Shown: piece after piece, positions 28,050 through 49,524 of the stretch
How the letters are laid out: every line of letters begins with the position of its first letter
Position numbering within the stretch: the first letter of the stretch is position 1
Source: Oligoflexales bacterium
Lineage (GTDB): Bacteria; Bdellovibrionota_B; Oligoflexia; Oligoflexales; Bog-1112
Direction: 5' to 3'
NCBI GenBank assembly: GCA_045106415.1
Contig: JBGCEP010000028.1
Span: forward strand, 32,001 to 96,000
DNA length: 64,000 nt
Translations under genes and position numbers: made by a program
Notes under the pieces: generated by a model
What the model saw: only the letters and a program-made list of their open reading frames with translations
Databases searched by the model: none
Told to the model about the DNA's origin: nothing

Positions 28050-29204
28050 ATGAAAATTCTTATTTTAGATGATCAGAAATATTACCTTGAGTCTCTTGTC
28101 GATGGTTTAAATGATCTTAACATTGAAATACAAACAACAACAGATCCAAAAAAAGCTTTGAAATTGGTTAAACAACACTCCCAAGATTATGCTGTTTTAT
28201 TAATAGATATCAATATGCCTATTATGAATGGTTTTGAAGTCATACAAAAAATAAATAATTTATCACTAGAATATTACCCTCCTGCTATTTTTTTAACCGC
28301 TGTTCATAATAATCAACAAAATATTCATTATGGCTACAGTAATGGAGCAGTAGACTACTTATTAAAACCCGTGGATTTATTTATCCTTCAATCAAAAATT
28401 TCTATCTTTACAAAACTTTATAAAAGTAGAAATGAAAACAATTTGTTAAATCAACAGTTATCACAAAAAATTTCTGAGCTTGAAAATGCAAATAAAAATC
28501 TACGATCATTTTCTTCTGTCGTAGCAAATGATTTAAAAACTCATGTCCGACAAATCTATAGTTTTAGCGAAATTATGCTGAATAAGAATTTAAAAAAAGA
28601 ATGTTCACTTGATTATTTATCCCGAATTCAACAATGCACATCTCAAATTAAACGAATTATTCATTCTATCAGCATCTTTAGTCAGTATGGATTAGAAAAT
28701 ATTGATAAAAAAACTTCTCACTCTGAAGAAGTCATACAAGAAGGAAAAAAATTTATTCAAAAAGAAATCAATAAATTTGATGTGGAAATAAATATTTCAA
28801 ATCATAGTTATCTTTATTGTGACAAAGAAAAAATGTCTATTGTTTTTCAGAACATCATACAAAATGCTATAAAATATAAAAATCCGAAAAATTCTCCGGT
28901 AATCAACATAAACATTCAACAAGAACCAAAAAAAACAACCATATCATTTACAGATAATGGATTAGGTATCCCAGAAAATAAAACAAAAGAAATATTTAAA
29001 TTTATGGAAAGATTTCATAATCCAGAAAAAATTCCAGGATCTGGCACGGGTTTAACAATATGTGAGCATATTGTTTCAATGCATGGTGGACATATTTGGG
29101 TAGAGTCAGAGCTTAATCATGGAAGTACTTTTTTCATTACCCTTCCAAAGCATCAAGAAAATATTTTGCTTGATAGCAAAAAGCCATCAAGCAAAATAGA
29201 CTAG
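28050..29204 (+). CDS. REC-HisKA-HATPase hybrid protein with H-box His replaced by Asn
   Basis: REC motifs LDD, LLIDINMP, LLKP; H-box VVANDLK; N/G boxes NAIKY, DNGLGI, GTGL. Confidence 0.9.
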   Translation: MKILILDDQKYYLESLVDGLNDLNIEIQTTTDPKKALKLVKQHSQDYAVLLIDINMPIMNGFEVIQKINNLSLEYYPPAIFLTAVHNNQQNIHYGYSNGAVDYLLKPVDLFILQSKISIFTKLYKSRNENNLLNQQLSQKISELENANKNLRSFSSVVANDLKTHVRQIYSFSEIMLNKNLKKECSLDYLSRIQQCTSQIKRIIHSISIFSQYGLENIDKKTSHSEEVIQEGKKFIQKEINKFDVEINISNHSYLYCDKEKMSIVFQNIIQNAIKYKNPKNSPVININIQQEPKKTTISFTDNGLGIPENKTKEIFKFMERFHNPEKIPGSGTGLTICEHIVSMHGGHIWVESELNHGSTFFITLPKHQENILLDSKKPSSKID

Positions 29205-29344
29205 TTACAATGATCATCGCACTCTTCACAACAATCACAACTTGCATATTCGCAGGTGTCACACCCGCAATGAGTAACAGAAAATCCTGGGTTCGCAGGG
29301 ACCATTAACGCGACCAACGATAGTTTTTTCAAAAGGTTCTTCAT
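29201..29344 (-). CDS. 47-aa exported Cys-rich metallothionein-like peptide (not in ORF track)
   Basis: Hand translation MKNLLKKLSLVALMVPANPGFSVTHCGCDTCEYASCDCCEECDDHCN; GAGGAG RBS 6 nt before ATG; ECF-type promoter upstream. Confidence 0.8.
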   Translation of the reverse strand: MKNLLKKLSLVALMVPANPGFSVTHCGCDTCEYASCDCCEECDDHCN

Positions 29345-29403
29345 CTCAAACTCCTCTAAATAAATTATTTATAAACCTTCTCACTCAAAGGCTTTTCATG
29401 AAC

Positions 29404-29432
29404 TATACTCAAATGATGACGAAAGTGTGACA
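29404..29432 (-). promoter_or_regulatory. ECF sigma-type promoter for the Cys-rich peptide
   Basis: TGTCACA-N17-GTATA, same boxes and spacing as the copy at 29960-29988. Confidence 0.75.
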
Positions 29433-29439
29433 TAGTGAC

Positions 29440-29934
29440 TCATAAAAATTTAAATCTCGCTTTAACAGCTTCATCTAAAAGAACTCCCCACGACTTAAAG
29501 CTTATATAAGCACTTAATGACCACATGAAAACATGCGGAACATCATTCATAACAGATCCGTTCATGTAAATTAAAAAAGCAAAAAAATTTAAAAATATAA
29601 AGAGAATAAAATGATAACTCCATATCACATGGCGGAATAAAAAACGGGAACAGATCCCTTTCAGTATCACGATAGGGGCCAATGTAAAAATCATTCCGCA
29701 CAAAATAGAGCAGCGGATAGATCCATACCTAGAATGAACCATATGCATCGTATCTTGTGCCATACGACTTAGCCCAAGACCAAATTGTCCACAAAAAATC
29801 ATAGATAAAAAGCCACCAAGAAAAATAGATAAACCTAGGCGCCATGTCACAGACCAAACACTAGGGTGCAGGTCTTGATGCACATACTTATAAATTTCTT
29901 CAACTTTAGTTTGATCAATTTTAGGAGCAACCAT
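29440..29934 (-). CDS. Four-TM protein with CxQFG and CxxxCG motifs; candidate anti-sigma factor or metal sensor
   Basis: Hydrophobic helices, IFCGQFG and RCSILCG; divergent from csoR-ECF. Confidence 0.65.
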   Translation of the reverse strand: MVAPKIDQTKVEEIYKYVHQDLHPSVWSVTWRLGLSIFLGGFLSMIFCGQFGLGLSRMAQDTMHMVHSRYGSIRCSILCGMIFTLAPIVILKGICSRFLFRHVIWSYHFILFIFLNFFAFLIYMNGSVMNDVPHVFMWSLSAYISFKSWGVLLDEAVKARFKFL

Positions 29935-29959
29935 AATTTATCCTAGATGATTCTAAATA

Positions 29960-29988
29960 TATACACTCATCGCTCAAAATTTGTGACA
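29960..29988 (-). promoter_or_regulatory. ECF sigma-type promoter for the candidate anti-sigma gene
   Basis: TGTCACA-N17-GTATA, 25 nt upstream of the ATG. Confidence 0.75.
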
Positions 29989-30001
29989 TTTGACAAAAAC
30001 T

Positions 30002-30031
30002 TTGACCCACCATACCCCCCAGGGGTATATT
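30002..30031 (+). promoter_or_regulatory. Sigma70 promoter with CsoR operator in the spacer
   Basis: TTGACC (30002-30007) N18 TATATT (30026-30031); pseudo-palindrome ATACCCC-CCA-GGGGTAT at 30012-30028. Confidence 0.85.
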
Positions 30032-30037
30032 GTTATC

Positions 30038-30319
30038 ATGGATAAAAATGTATTTGCAAAAAAAACATCAGCAAGATTAAACCGAGCACTAGGTCAAGTC
30101 AAAGCAATTGGCAGCATGATTGAGAATGATGATTATTGTATTCATATCATCAGGCAAATTCGCGCTGCTAAATCAGCTTTAAATGCTCTTGAGCTTCTTT
30201 TACTAAATAGGCACATGCAAACTTGTGTTCGCACAGCATTTCAGCATGAAGATCCCGTCACCTCAGAAGAAAAAATTGATGAAATCATTTCTCTACTTAA
30301 AGAAGCACGAAAGTCATGA
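30038..30319 (+). CDS. csoR: CsoR/RcnR family metal-sensing repressor with Cu(I)-type C-H-C ligands
   Basis: RLNRALGQVKAI, DYCIHIIRQIRAAKSAL, RHMQTCV; start moved to ATG 30038. Confidence 0.9.
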   Translation: MDKNVFAKKTSARLNRALGQVKAIGSMIENDDYCIHIIRQIRAAKSALNALELLLLNRHMQTCVRTAFQHEDPVTSEEKIDEIISLLKEARKS

Positions 30320-30825
30320 ATAAAAAAAACTGCACGAACGAAGATCTTTTAAGGTTTTATTCTCAAGGAGATTTTGCGAGTTTTGATATTTTTTTCAAAA
30401 GAAACAGTCATATGATTTTTATGTTTATCTTCAGCAGAAGTGGAAATAAAGCTGACTCAGAAGATATTCTCCAAGAAACATTTTTTAAAATCCATAAGTA
30501 TATTCACACATTTAACCCAGAAAAAAATGCATTGAATTGGGTTTTCACAATCGCTATGAACACTCTTATCACACACCATAAATCTCGAAACAAACACCTA
30601 CCTCACTTTGATGAAATAAGTGCATCTTCTCCACACAGTCAAATTGAAGCTCGCAATGAATTACAAAAAATATTGGCAACATTATCTCATCACGAATCTT
30701 CTTTAATCATAGAAAAATTCCTTCTTGGAAAAGACTCTCATGAGATGAGTGAAACTTTTAAATCACCTGCTCCAAATATTCGAAAAAAATTATCTCGCCT
30801 TCTACAAAAAATCAGGTACTCATAA
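30316..30825 (+). CDS. ECF RNA polymerase sigma factor
   Basis: DSEDILQETFFKI, NWVFTIAMN, region-4-like C-terminus; ATGA overlap with csoR. Confidence 0.9.
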   Translation: MNKKNCTNEDLLRFYSQGDFASFDIFFKRNSHMIFMFIFSRSGNKADSEDILQETFFKIHKYIHTFNPEKNALNWVFTIAMNTLITHHKSRNKHLPHFDEISASSPHSQIEARNELQKILATLSHHESSLIIEKFLLGKDSHEMSETFKSPAPNIRKKLSRLLQKIRYS

Positions 30826-30971
30826 GCAATACCAACTAGAAAAAAGATCAGCAAAAAAACTCACTCACATCTCTAAACAAGTTTACTTCATAATTCTTAA
30901 ACAACATACAACACCTTAATAATTAAAGAGAAAATAAGACTTTCGTCAAAAACTTGCCAATACCTCAAGTC

Positions 30972-30995
30972 ATCGTTTAAGTTATGTTAAACGAT
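30972..30995. promoter_or_regulatory. Palindromic operator, copy 1 (perfect)
   Basis: ATCGTTTAA-gttatg-TTAAACGAT upstream of azurin. Confidence 0.8.
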
Positions 30996-31068: not shown

Positions 31069-31572
31069 ATGTTAAAAAATTTTCTTGCTATTTTATGTAT
31101 CTTTGTAAGTCATCTTGCTTATGGGCTTAACTGCAGCGTCACCATTGAAGCTAATGATATGATGCGTTATAGCAGTGAAACCATGTCTATCAACAAAAAA
31201 TGCAAAAATGTTAAAGTGATTCTTAAAAATGTGGGCAAACTTCCTAAGGTTGCTATGGGGCATAATTGGGTTCTATCAAAGACATCAGATATGCAAGCTG
31301 TTTCAACAGAGGCTTTAAAAGCAGGTGCAGCAAAAGAATACACTCCCGAAGGCTCTAAAGTTATTGCAAAAACAAAACTCCTAGGGGGTGGTGAGCAAGA
31401 TGAAGTGAGCTTTAATGTTGAAAAGTTAAATAAAGATGAACAATACACCTATTTTTGCACATTCCCCGGTCATTCTTCTCTAATGAAGGGTACTTTTAAA
31501 TTCACAGAGACAGGAGAGTTACATGGCAAATCAAACCAAAAAACCAATGGAGATCACTCCCGAAAAGCTTGA
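31069..31572 (+). CDS. azu: Azurin (blue copper protein)
   Basis: Signal peptide; MGHNWVL and YFCTFPGHSSLMKG type-1 Cu ligands; N-terminal disulfide Cys pair. Confidence 0.95.
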   Translation: MLKNFLAILCIFVSHLAYGLNCSVTIEANDMMRYSSETMSINKKCKNVKVILKNVGKLPKVAMGHNWVLSKTSDMQAVSTEALKAGAAKEYTPEGSKVIAKTKLLGGGEQDEVSFNVEKLNKDEQYTYFCTFPGHSSLMKGTFKFTETGELHGKSNQKTNGDHSRKA

Positions 31573-46660: not shown

Positions 46661-47584
46661 TCAGTTTCTTTTAGGCTTTTTAAAACCTGGGTGAGTCCTT
46701 ATCAGGCGGAAATTTAAATCGTTTTCACTCACATTTTCAGAAATTTCCCCTTGAGATATCGGAGTCATATACGCGCGACAACCTTTCCTCATTTGAGTTC
46801 GAGTCCACTCAGGGCACTCAAAAATCCACACATTTTTTTCTGTACAAGAAAAAGACATATTCAGAAATTTATTCCAACTCGCGAGTTGGATCCATTCTTG
46901 GCAAGAGGGCAAGGAAAAACCAGAGAAAAAACCTTGCCTATCACATTCTTTATTCAACTTTTTAAGGAACACATTAATTTCAGAAAAGTTTATATTTTTC
47001 ATAAAACCTTTTCTATTTTCTAAAACATCACAACCTACCACAGCATTATACTGCTTCTCAGAAATAGGTTTTTTTAAAAAAGAAAATCCTTTTTGGTATT
47101 GGATAAATTCAAACTCAACACCAAAAATAAATAATTTACATACATCAAAAATTTGAGAGATATGTTTTTTTTCTACATGCCACTTTCTTAGTAAAAAAAG
47201 ATTTTCATGAAGATTTAACAAATGCAAGTCATCATAGAAAATTTTATTAAAAACATTAGGAATAAACGATTTAATATTTAAAGAAACTTCTCGAGGAAGA
47301 TCAAGAAAACCAGGCTGCGGTAAAATTCTTGTTTTATTCTCAATAGCGTTATGAATAGCAGCTAAGCTATCTAAGTGAACACTCAAATGTTCAAGAGAAA
47401 TACAGCCTAAGACTTGAATTTTTGGTTTTACAAAGAGCTCATGATATAAAACACTTTCTTCAAGACCATTAAATTTTTCTTCATGAAAGACAAACTCTGA
47501 CCCTTGAAAACAAGATGTCACAATCTCGTAACTATAAGCTATACTACAACAAAAAAACGCGCATAAAAATATATACTTTTTCAT
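46661..47584 (-). CDS. Exported protein with F-box-like motif and degenerate FGE-sulfatase (CLec) domain
   Basis: FLDLPREVSLNIKSFI; PISEKQYNAVVG, FLKKLN, FSLPSCQEW, LNFRLIRT. Confidence 0.5.
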   Translation of the reverse strand: MKKYIFLCAFFCCSIAYSYEIVTSCFQGSEFVFHEEKFNGLEESVLYHELFVKPKIQVLGCISLEHLSVHLDSLAAIHNAIENKTRILPQPGFLDLPREVSLNIKSFIPNVFNKIFYDDLHLLNLHENLFLLRKWHVEKKHISQIFDVCKLFIFGVEFEFIQYQKGFSFLKKPISEKQYNAVVGCDVLENRKGFMKNINFSEINVFLKKLNKECDRQGFFSGFSLPSCQEWIQLASWNKFLNMSFSCTEKNVWIFECPEWTRTQMRKGCRAYMTPISQGEISENVSENDLNFRLIRTHPGFKKPKRN

Positions 47585-47608
47585 ATTTATCTCAGAAATT
47601 TTTATTTA

Positions 47609-47644
47609 AGAAAGAGTCCCTATTCTCAAACAAGGACTCTTTCT
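47609..47644 (-). terminator. Stem-loop directly after the acyl-CoA dehydrogenase gene
   Basis: 11-bp inverted repeat AGAAAGAGTCC/GGACTCTTTCT; weak U-tract. Confidence 0.45.
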
Positions 47645-47646
47645 CT

Positions 47647-49524
47647 TTAATCTTCAGTGCCAGTAGGTTGAGGGTTTGGATAATTTTTATTATCCAAACG
47701 ATCTAATAAATCTTCAACAATTTCATCTGGTGTTTCTATAAGTGATTTTAAGTATTCTGCTCGTGGAAGAGATTTATAAAGAAATCTTTTTACAACCCAC
47801 GCATAGTTTGGATCATCTTCAAAATCACACACCAAAGATTGAGAAAGAGCATCTAAAGTTTTTAATTCACACAAATATTCTGCCGCTAAAAGCGCAGGAC
47901 GTAAATTTTCAAACTTCACTAAATCAGCACTAATTAATCGAATAACTTTAGATAGGTCTGCATCCTGACCGACCTTATCTTTAACGTTTCTCTTTACTAG
48001 TCGAAACAAAATGCTAACAATTGAGCTATGCAGCATTTGCTGAATTTTTATTGATTTTTTATGAGAGTCACTCTTTGCTGTTACAATTTTAATTCGTAGC
48101 GACAAGCCTTGTTCAATAAACGTTCTTGGGTTTCGAACCACCTCTTTTAATGTATCTTTAAGGCACATTAAGGCTTGAATCTGTGAGGTGCCTTCATAGA
48201 TTGGATAAACTAAACTTTCTCTCAACCAACGCTCAGCATCATATTCTTTTGTAAAACCATACCCCCCAAGCAACTGTAATGCTTGCCTTGATTGCCACAC
48301 GGCTCTTTCCGTTACCCAGTATTTTAATAGAGGAGTCCAAATTCTTAATTTTTTTTGATGTTTTCTAACAAGTTTTTCAACCTTAGATCTTTCTTCAAAA
48401 GAAAGGTCTCCTTTAAGTTTTTTTTCACCACTAACAACAATAGACCTTGAATGTGCAGTCTTATAGCCAAAACTTCTAGCAGCACGTATTTCAACATCCA
48501 TATCCATGAGCATCGATGCAACTAACTCATGCTGCGCTAAAGGCTTCCCCCAAGCTTGCCTTTGGCTCGTATATTCTGAAGCCATCTCATATGTTGCTTG
48601 CATAAGACCTAAGGCTTGAAAAGCAACACCAATACGAGAGTCATTCATCAGTTGAAGCATGTAATGAAAACCTTCATTAGGTTTTCCTATCAACCATCCA
48701 ACAGACTGGTTATAGACGAGTTCAGCTGTAGCTGAACCGTTCAAAGCCACTTTATGTTCAAGTTTTTCAATATGAATATTTTCTTTTGATTCTATAGTTC
48801 GTGGGCACAAATAAAGCGATAAATTTCCAAGCCCTTCAGCGCCTTTTGTTGTTTTTGCTAAAACAAGACTAATATCGGCAGTTCCATTTGTAATAAATCT
48901 TTTACATCCACTTAAAAGCCAAGTTCCATCTTCTTGTTCTTCTGCATATGTTTGAATAGAACCCAAATCACTTCCCGTGTTCGGTTCACTCAAAGCCATA
49001 TTGCCTGATATTTTTCCAGATGCGATTTGTGGTATAAAACGCTGAGAAAGTTCTTCGCTTCCAAATTTTTCAATAACATGTGCGATTGAGCTATACCAAG
49101 TACAATTTAAAGTTGTTGAGGGACAAGCTCTATTCAACATTTCTAAAGCTGCCATTTCAACTGTATAAGGAGCTCCTAGTCCACCATATTCTGGCGAAAC
49201 TCCAAAAGGAGCTAACCCAATATCTTTTAACAATTCTAGATTTTGTTTGAGCTCTTCTGGAAGAACAAGGGCTTGTTCTTTGAGGTAAACAGGATTTTCA
49301 TCAATCTTTCTCTGATTGTTTTGAAGCTCATGAGCACAAACTCTGCCAACTTCTTTGAGAGCTTCTTCCCATTGTTCAGCATACTCAACAGCCTGCTCAG
49401 CACCGATCGCATCTTTATCAGCATCTGATAAGAGGGCAAAAAATTCCTTGTCCTTCATAGCTAAACGAAGATGGTACATAAGGTTATCATTATCTTCAAA
49501 AAAGTTTTTTATCTGCATAAACAC
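47647..49524 (-). CDS. Acyl-CoA dehydrogenase
   Basis: MALSEPNTGSDL, KRFITNG, MNDSRIGV, QLLGGYGF, IYEGTSQIQ. Confidence 0.95.
   Translation of the reverse strand: MFMQIKNFFEDNDNLMYHLRLAMKDKEFFALLSDADKDAIGAEQAVEYAEQWEEALKEVGRVCAHELQNNQRKIDENPVYLKEQALVLPEELKQNLELLKDIGLAPFGVSPEYGGLGAPYTVEMAALEMLNRACPSTTLNCTWYSSIAHVIEKFGSEELSQRFIPQIASGKISGNMALSEPNTGSDLGSIQTYAEEQEDGTWLLSGCKRFITNGTADISLVLAKTTKGAEGLGNLSLYLCPRTIESKENIHIEKLEHKVALNGSATAELVYNQSVGWLIGKPNEGFHYMLQLMNDSRIGVAFQALGLMQATYEMASEYTSQRQAWGKPLAQHELVASMLMDMDVEIRAARSFGYKTAHSRSIVVSGEKKLKGDLSFEERSKVEKLVRKHQKKLRIWTPLLKYWVTERAVWQSRQALQLLGGYGFTKEYDAERWLRESLVYPIYEGTSQIQALMCLKDTLKEVVRNPRTFIEQGLSLRIKIVTAKSDSHKKSIKIQQMLHSSIVSILFRLVKRNVKDKVGQDADLSKVIRLISADLVKFENLRPALLAAEYLCELKTLDALSQSLVCDFEDDPNYAWVVKRFLYKSLPRAEYLKSLIETPDEIVEDLLDRLDNKNYPNPQPTGTED

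Follow-up and report, generated by a model that had tools for sequence, protein, structure and literature searches.

The DNA analysed here, referred to below as the window, is a stretch of 64,000 nt from an Oligoflexales bacterium (Bog-1112; assembly GCA_045106415.1, contig JBGCEP010000028.1, positions 32,001-96,000, forward strand), and coordinates are given as positions within it. It contains a small gene cassette that may form a copper-responsive regulatory cascade. A csoR gene and a gene for an extracytoplasmic function (ECF) sigma factor lie on the plus strand behind a promoter overlaid by a predicted CsoR operator, and on the minus strand lie a gene for a membrane protein, the candidate anti-sigma factor, and a gene for a short Cys-rich peptide, both preceded by the same ECF-type motif TGTCACA-N16-nGTA (Table 1). 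A first-pass annotation of the sequence had named csoR, the sigma gene, the membrane-protein gene, the peptide gene, the operator and the motifs, and all of them are present where it had placed them. Its more specific observations hold as well: the sigma ATG overlaps the csoR TGA by 4 nt (ATGA), which it had read as translational coupling; the divergent four-helix protein carries the CxQFG and CxxxCG elements, here CGQFG (C48) and CSILCG (C75, C79); the shared motif is found upstream of both minus-strand genes; and no copA or copZ lies in the locus, nor was either found across the assembly. The azurin gene beside the cassette is absent from that annotation.

Table 1. Features of the cassette and its surroundings (positions within the 64,000-nt window).
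Feature	Positions	Strand	Description
Terminator-like hairpin	29162..29198	-	16-bp stem and T-run, directly after the peptide stop codon
Cys-rich peptide gene	29201..29344	-	47 aa; from the open reading frame listing; no Pfam/NCBIfam family
ECF-type promoter motif	29406..29432	-	TGTCACA-N16-AGTA, 61 nt upstream of the peptide ATG
Membrane protein gene, candidate anti-sigma factor	29440..29934	-	164 aa; four long hydrophobic helices; Pfam-less
ECF-type promoter motif	29962..29988	-	TGTCACA-N16-TGTA, 27 nt upstream of the membrane protein ATG
Sigma-70-like promoter	30002..30031	+	TTGACC-18-TATATT, upstream of csoR
Predicted CsoR operator	30012..30028	strandless	ATACCCCCCAGGGGTAT, TAC-N9-GTA with G/C tracts; spans promoter spacer and -10
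csoR	30038..30319	+	93 aa; PF02583
ECF sigma gene	30316..30825	+	169 aa; TIGR02937, Sigma70_r2
Azurin gene	31069..31572	+	TIGR02695, E 2e-48; 243 nt downstream of the sigma gene

Judged by sequence, both CsoR and its operator are canonical. The protein matches PF02583 (Trns_repr_metal; E 4.7e-24, 85 bits against a cut-off of 22.8 bits), its residues C34, H59 and C63 align with the Cu(I) ligand positions (YC...HxxxC) of the solved CsoRs 2hh7, 4m1p and 4adz, as expected from the C-H-C ligand set already proposed for it, and the RLxR motif in helix 1 reads RLNR. The best NCBIfam model is RicR, at 59.9 bits and far below its cut-off of 175 bits. In the parts of PMC3902906 drawn on here, CsoR operators follow a TAC-X9-GTA rule, with the consensus ATATACCCCTNAGGGGTATAT in the streptomycete S. 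lividans. The window operator, a perfect 17-bp palindrome between the -35 TTGACC and the -10 TATATT, fits this consensus, and its inner part TACCCCCCAGGGGTA (30013-30027) fits the G-tract pseudopalindrome TAC-X9-GTA at csoR's own promoter, in line with the earlier proposal that csoR and the sigma gene stand under a CsoR operator. The operator core TACCC-N5-GGGTA is found at a single place in the window and was produced by none of 100 shuffles. As the -10 element ends just 6 nt upstream of the csoR ATG, the csoR mRNA may be leaderless. The genome contains a single csoR, and only one other CsoR-like box, TACCCCAGGGGGTA (G000:C70:47472-47485), which lies inside an open reading frame (ORF) of 236 aa (47053-47763), about 400 nt upstream of the next gene. 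An 18-nt element occurs on the plus strand upstream of both csoR and azurin in two versions that are 83% alike (GACATTTGACAAAAACTT at 29985-30002 and GACTTTCGTCAAAAACTT at 30938-30955) and may mark a site common to both genes or simply reflect chance similarity in AT-rich DNA.

The sigma factor consists of regions 2 and 4 only. TIGR02937 matches residues 23-167 of 169 (E 3.5e-18) and Sigma70_r2 is found at E 1.1e-11, with a weak match to r4_2 (E 0.096). The protein ends 2 residues past the sigma4 match, without a C-terminal extension, and holds a single Cys (C6).

The membrane protein begins with a helix at residues 8-22, followed by the four long hydrophobic helices. An AlphaFold2 model built on the family alignment (predicted local distance difference test, pLDDT, 95.3; predicted template-modelling score, pTM, 0.86) places these at residues 26-47, 72-94, 108-125 and 132-163, with shorter helices at 57-70 and 97-106. 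In this model C48 lies at the end of helix 26-47, and C75 and C79 stand one turn apart in the first turns of helix 72-94. By the positive-inside rule, the three cysteines and a His/Met loop would be placed at the periplasmic face; the N-terminal helix would be cytoplasmic. Conservation is concentrated at these sites: when the window protein is aligned with 149 representatives (150 in total; ~19% mean column identity), C48 is kept in 148, Q50 in 149, C75 in 145, C79 in 146 and W138 in 144 sequences, and position 67 is most often occupied by His (65 sequences) or Met (57). The family can be recognised by the signature C-x-Q ... C-x3-C-G.

How large the family appears depends on the query. With the window protein alone, a general homologue search returned only the protein itself, searches of genome and metagenome contigs gave no relative, and a search among related genomes found homologues in 23 of 61. 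A profile of 16 sequences detected the family in 60 of 131 genomes of the phylum and, among 1.84 billion proteins, 668 representatives at E<=1e-3 (562 at E<=1e-10). None of the 46 members scanned matches any Pfam family above cut-off. Structural comparison was similarly unproductive: Foldseek with the model gave nothing in the PDB at E<=0.001, the top match in a wide VIA-align search (Z 6.9) was a designed helical bundle and as such generic, and in the ESM Atlas the best feature score was 0.89 (YWFCY clusters) against a bar of 0.9, all structural rows having template-modelling scores <0.52 and pointing to no family. Two known anti-sigma families were considered and rejected. Residues 1-30, the cytoplasmic part, contain no Cys, no HxxxCxxC and no zf-HC2 match, which excludes a ZAS anti-sigma factor with its zinc motif. 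NrsF (DUF1109) was rejected as PF06532 matches neither the window protein (E<=0.1) nor its relatives (15 tested at E<=0.001, 30 at E<=1) and the hhalign probability against nine NrsF proteins of the phylum is 1.8%; true NrsF genes are located elsewhere, in 26 of the 131 phylum genomes.

The function of the membrane protein is suggested mainly by its gene neighbourhood. Sixty-nine loci were compared (the window, 16 and a further 52 related loci) by searching their ORFs with local profiles, and 70 complete ORFs of the family were obtained from 67 of them, L027 and L122 being cut by contig ends. For 63 of these 70 ORFs, an ECF sigma gene is located no more than 1.5 kb away. The order is sigma gene followed by membrane-protein gene in 48 cases, most with a 4-nt overlap (gap -3), convergent in 9, divergent in 3 and membrane-protein gene followed by sigma gene in 3, leaving 7 without a nearby sigma gene. 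Counted differently, 43 of 69 members stand immediately after the sigma gene (gap <=60 nt, mostly the 4-nt overlap), and these operons showed no second conserved gene that might be a candidate for the anti-sigma role. Given the linkage and the predominant sigma-first order, the membrane protein is very probably an anti-sigma factor. When a complex of the sigma factor with residues 1-60 of the membrane protein was predicted, the scores were 0.26 and 0.24, the mark being 0.32. The window differs from the predominant order in that its two genes point away from each other. A tree of 69 membrane proteins is divided by a branch with 99% support in the Shimodaira-Hasegawa-like approximate likelihood ratio test (SH-aLRT) into 25 uncoupled or sigma-less rows, including the window and the family-level relative G002, and 44 rows made up of 43 operon forms and one uncoupled form. 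This split indicates that the divergent arrangement is a trait of a subclade and not an oddity of one genome; by this tree, the window belongs to a subclade in which the anti-sigma gene is uncoupled from the sigma gene.

Within the window, TGTCACA-N16-nGTA has 2 matches versus 0.13 expected, a number reached by 1 of 100 shuffles. Across the 569,665 bp of the 69 loci, TGTCAC(A/G)-N16-nGTA has 81 matches versus ~2.2 expected from base counts, directly upstream of 14 membrane-protein genes and of 13 sigma genes of operon-type loci, and most of the remaining matches lie upstream of metal-related or exported-protein genes. The targets in relatives comprise CusC-like OEP/outer-membrane factors, RND pumps (resistance-nodulation-division), one P-type ATPase, small exported His/Cys proteins and exported proteins of ~135 aa beginning HGE(D/N)KPGP; CusB proteins with HMBD or YtkA domains are found in the same operons as the motif-led efflux genes. 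By its placement the motif is the predicted promoter of this sigma and membrane-protein family at large, and targets of this kind suggest that the regulon amounts to an envelope defence of the copper/silver type. In the uncoupled subclade the motif stands upstream of the membrane-protein gene and was not found upstream of the sigma gene. As far as the motif can tell, the regulon in the present genome would consist of the membrane-protein gene and the peptide gene.

Two groups of exported proteins recur behind this promoter. One is a Pfam-less family of ~130-147 aa with the mature N-terminus HGE(D/N)KPGPxGG(F/H)(V/I)(K/R)MPG.FH (L024:822-1220, L030:6144-6587, L071:1184-1594, L073 near 5086, L031 from 5037 and L075 from 2487), which is a candidate periplasmic copper protein given its position behind the ECF promoter and usually just before the membrane-protein gene. 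In class-level relatives the motif drives exported proteins of ~238-249 aa with the mature end AHPVVF..GTA.M (L100, L102, L105, L107, L108, L113-L115, L119 and L122).

The product of the second motif-led gene in the window is a 47-aa peptide with a signal-like N-terminus (MKNLLKKLSLVALMV...), followed by ~24 residues with 9 Cys, 2 His and 7 Asp/Glu. An AGGAG stands 7 nt upstream of its ATG. It has no Pfam or NCBIfam family at E<=0.1 and belongs to no known metallothionein family; it is metallothionein-like in composition only, by virtue of the 9 Cys in its last 24 residues. A comparable case is found in genome G059 (L036), where a signal-peptide-bearing peptide with 12 Cys lies behind the same ECF motif. 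A bufferin-type precursor of a ribosomally synthesised and post-translationally modified peptide (RiPP) was rejected, there being no DUF2282 match and no adjacent MNIO (PF05114) or DUF2063 gene. The only MNIO of the genome is encoded on another contig, in a bufferin-type operon (G000:C10:13890-15439; L135:1227-2776) with its own DUF2282 precursor (86 aa with signal peptide), the MNIO (PF05114 E 3e-78) and a DUF2063 protein; no TGTCACA motif was found upstream of that operon. Convergent with the peptide gene is a gene for a hybrid response regulator/histidine kinase (28050-29204), the last codons of which hold the hairpin that also terminates the peptide gene.

No HMA domain (PF00403), no P-type ATPase of any kind (PF00122) and no multicopper oxidase domain (PF07732) was found in the assembly, which is 93.8% complete, and tblastn with CopA proteins from relatives gave no match; all 14 control genomes contain a P-type ATPase. 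Such ATPases are present in 10 of 16 genomes of the same family, so their loss is not rare there; 5 of the 15 other genomes of this family likewise have none. An efflux operon resembling the heavy-metal efflux (HME) type of RND systems is present on another contig (G000:C6:56465-64013); its membrane-fusion protein has a His-rich N-terminus (NEHQNDEHDKNHEHDKNHEHH), and no ECF motif was found upstream of the operon.

Taken together, we favour, at a probability of about 55%, a copper-responsive cascade in which a canonical CsoR has been joined to one representative of an ECF sigma/anti-sigma system that is widespread in Oligoflexia though undescribed. While cytoplasmic Cu(I) is low, CsoR would sit on the operator over the csoR-sigma promoter and keep both genes off. 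Binding of Cu(I) at C34/H59/C63 would release CsoR and allow the sigma factor to be made, and new sigma factor would be free at first, because the anti-sigma gene itself needs the sigma factor for its expression, and could fire the two TGTCACA-N16-nGTA promoters. From one of these, the membrane protein would be produced and would bind the sigma factor via its short cytoplasmic N-terminal helix as negative feedback. From the other, the peptide precursor would be produced and exported by Sec, leaving a mature peptide of ~24 residues and 9 Cys that may buffer soft metal in the periplasm. Where the first two long helices reach the periplasmic face, the three cysteines and the His/Met most likely form a site for Cu(I) or Ag(I), and metal binding there would weaken capture of the sigma factor, such that output would last only while copper is present in both cytoplasm and envelope. 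The steps that we infer are the binding of the sigma factor by the membrane protein, a metal-sensing role of the cysteines, and the peptide's export and chelating activity. The linkage of sigma and membrane-protein genes, that of motif and targets, and the presence of a CsoR box before the sigma gene find support in other genomes.

A number of observations weigh against this cascade, beginning with the CsoR layer. A csoR gene lies near the sigma and membrane-protein module in 3 of the 69 loci (the window, G057 and G063), and a CsoR operator precedes the sigma gene in two genomes only, the window and G057. In G057 (L031), a parallel that speaks for the cascade, one CsoR box stands before csoR and a second directly before the sigma gene, and the ECF motif precedes an operon of an exported protein and the membrane protein, which by its sites is the same logic as in the window in another gene order. 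In G063 csoR is adjacent and has a box in front of it, and the pair of exported-protein and membrane-protein genes stands behind a variant motif (CGTCACG-N16-AGTA); the 124 nt available upstream of the sigma gene, however, show no box. In the other uncoupled loci no CsoR box was found before the sigma gene, and in G029 copA and the sigma gene lie on one strand, copA first. Of the 16 genomes of the window's own family, 3 possess csoR. The sister genera G009 and G005 count on the supporting side: there csoR shows the canonical arrangement, ~1 kb upstream of a P-type ATPase domain. CsoR control of the sigma factor thus appears to be rare. Most of the wiring drawn in the first-pass annotation finds good support in the comparison of genomes: it is backed by CsoR and its operator, by the association of the motif with its targets, by the G057 box before the sigma gene and by the G059 peptide; its expectation that the genes would be linked elsewhere is borne out for sigma factor and membrane protein and holds only rarely for csoR. 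The cassette is best understood as a reduced form, gated by CsoR, of an undescribed Oligoflexia ECF system that is widespread and drives Cus-type efflux elsewhere, and not as a self-standing invention.

Other difficulties concern the remaining parts. The strict motif occurs six times in the genome, which is about the chance number, and singles out the locus only because the other four matches sit inside ORFs. The cytoplasmic N-terminus of the membrane protein is just ~25-30 residues long and, besides being free of HxxxCxxC, has no match to an anti-sigma Pfam family. The tree was obtained in a quick maximum-likelihood search, not a careful one. No relative of the peptide was found among 5.8e9 proteins, the query itself being the only hit, the hydrophobic core of its signal segment is short, and its nine cysteines could be open to oxidation in the periplasm. 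The absence of CopA might stem from the ~6% of the genome that is not assembled.

Different explanations of the same locus have to be weighed against these arguments, and two of them turn on the membrane protein. The cascade could be real and the protein a plain anti-sigma brake that senses no metal, copper entering through CsoR alone and the cysteines being structural or serving regulated proteolysis. The CsoR operator would by itself make the module copper-responsive, and a sigma-dependent anti-sigma promoter gives feedback without a second signal. Yet 66 of the 69 loci have no csoR nearby and still lie beside Cus-type efflux genes, CopA or exported His/Cys proteins, from which it follows that such family members would need a metal input of their own, and the three cysteines with the His/Met are kept in 145-149 of 150 sequences at so low an overall identity; we consider this version unlikely, though the most probable of the alternatives. 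Little credence is given to the suggestion that the protein is no anti-sigma factor and instead acts as a sigma-dependent membrane handler of thiols or metal, for instance an oxidoreductase or Cu(I) carrier, for exported Cys/His proteins. The modelled position of the cysteines at the periplasmic membrane face would suit such a role, the family lacks a recognisable anti-sigma domain, and in the uncoupled subclade the gene belongs to the regulon and often follows an exported HGE(D/N)KPGP protein. On the other side stand the 43 members placed right after a sigma gene, which is a hallmark of anti-sigma genes, and the lack of any other conserved candidate in the operons.

The azurin gene opens a further possibility, namely a switch for copper sufficiency, in which readthrough from csoR and the sigma gene would reach azurin, and the peptide and the membrane protein would supply or buffer copper for the loading of cuproproteins. 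Azurin follows the sigma gene on the same strand with no terminator-like site found in between, and the failure to find an efflux ATPase, an HMA protein or a multicopper oxidase in the assembly would be in keeping with this. However, azurin has a perfect palindrome of its own (ATCGTTTAA-N6-TTAAACGAT, 30972-30995) 74 nt upstream of its start, a single occurrence in the window that none of 100 shuffles reproduces, which is probably the operator of some regulator, and no ECF motif was found before it; in addition, the same sigma family drives efflux genes in relatives, and no homologue of the window azurin was found in the first 16 related loci. The membership of azurin in the cassette is uncertain, and a sufficiency switch seems rather improbable. 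Least probable of all, in our estimate, is that the 47-codon ORF is no gene, or that its product is a RiPP precursor, modified by the MNIO from the other contig, and not an unmodified metallothionein-like peptide. The orphan sequence speaks for this, as do the presence of one DUF2282-MNIO-DUF2063 operon in the genome and the precedent of bufferin precursors, which are Sec-exported Cys peptides under ECF control in the sections of PMC11626156 used here. Against it, a Shine-Dalgarno sequence and an ECF promoter precede the ORF and a hairpin terminator follows it, a G059 analogue carries the same promoter, and the MNIO operon possesses its own DUF2282 precursor and no upstream TGTCACA.

The functionally closest known system is SigF-NrsF (ECF16) with the bufferin operons buf1 and buf2 in Caulobacter vibrioides; according to the same parts of PMC11626156, SigF is held by the polytopic membrane anti-sigma factor NrsF, the system is induced by copper, and Sec-exported Cys peptides complex periplasmic copper. 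The cassette described here likewise combines an ECF sigma factor, a polytopic membrane protein as candidate anti-sigma factor and a Cys peptide predicted to be exported. It differs in that the membrane family is not NrsF, the peptide is not of the DUF2282 type and has no MNIO or DUF2063 neighbour, the sigma factor is under CsoR and the anti-sigma gene is uncoupled from the sigma gene. A CsoR-type repressor with a metallothionein as output is also known from the RicR regulon of M. tuberculosis, where MymT is cytoplasmic and directly repressed. The window resembles it in its repressor and in having a small Cys-rich peptide as output, whereas control here would be indirect via the sigma factor and the peptide has a signal sequence. 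With the CsoR-copZA and csoR-copA operons of B. subtilis, M. tuberculosis and S. lividans (as covered in part by PMC3902906) the cassette shares the C-H-C ligands, RLxR and autoregulation at TAC-X9-GTA. Unlike in those operons, the co-transcribed partner is an ECF sigma factor and not a chaperone or ATPase, in a genome in which neither a P-type ATPase nor an HMA protein was found.

Among metal-responsive ECF sigma systems that control metal resistance genes, the cassette is akin to CnrYXH and CorE. In CnrYXH (Cupriavidus) a single-pass anti-sigma factor works with a separate periplasmic sensor. CorE of Myxococcus senses copper itself, by a Cys-rich C-terminal extension and a CxC between sigma2 and sigma4 (PMC10141476, in part). 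Self-sensing of this type is excluded for the window sigma factor, and CorE-like membership was rejected, because it has one Cys, C6, and no extension. The -35 TGTCACA and 16-nt spacer are shared with ECF41, which has a -10 CGTC, a fused C-terminal regulatory domain, no anti-sigma factor and COE targets in the portion of PMC3426412 drawn on here. Membership in ECF41 was likewise rejected: the 169-aa sigma factor has no such extension, its -10 is nGTA, its targets are of the metal-efflux kind, and a membrane partner is linked to it in 63 of 70 cases. The literature searched, with subscription journals and ECF-classification supplements lying outside it, yielded no account of an ECF sigma factor under CsoR or of this anti-sigma family; this agrees with the first-pass annotation, which had not recognised the wiring as described.

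A bolder reading, held tentatively and with the odds leaning somewhat against it, is that the membrane protein founds an undescribed family of membrane-embedded anti-sigma factors that sense Cu(I)/Ag(I) through three Cys and a His or Met on the periplasmic side of the membrane, and take the place of CusRS in Oligoflexia. Here, placed behind CsoR, it would allow cytoplasmic and envelope copper to be read in series, with a Sec-exported metallothionein-like peptide as the sole structural output and copper ATPases dispensed with. The analysis defines a sizeable and unannotated family of candidate anti-sigma factors with a metal-site signature and a promoter, which would permit the annotation of copper/silver regulons across Oligoflexia, and presents a case in which the gene of CsoR, a one-component metal sensor, immediately precedes that of an ECF sigma factor. 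At 1.6 kb, the cassette is small enough to be rebuilt in E. coli as a reporter system. For the organism itself, it points to a periplasmic and unmodified Cys-rich peptide as a possible copper defence where no Cu-ATPase, CopZ or multicopper oxidase was found.

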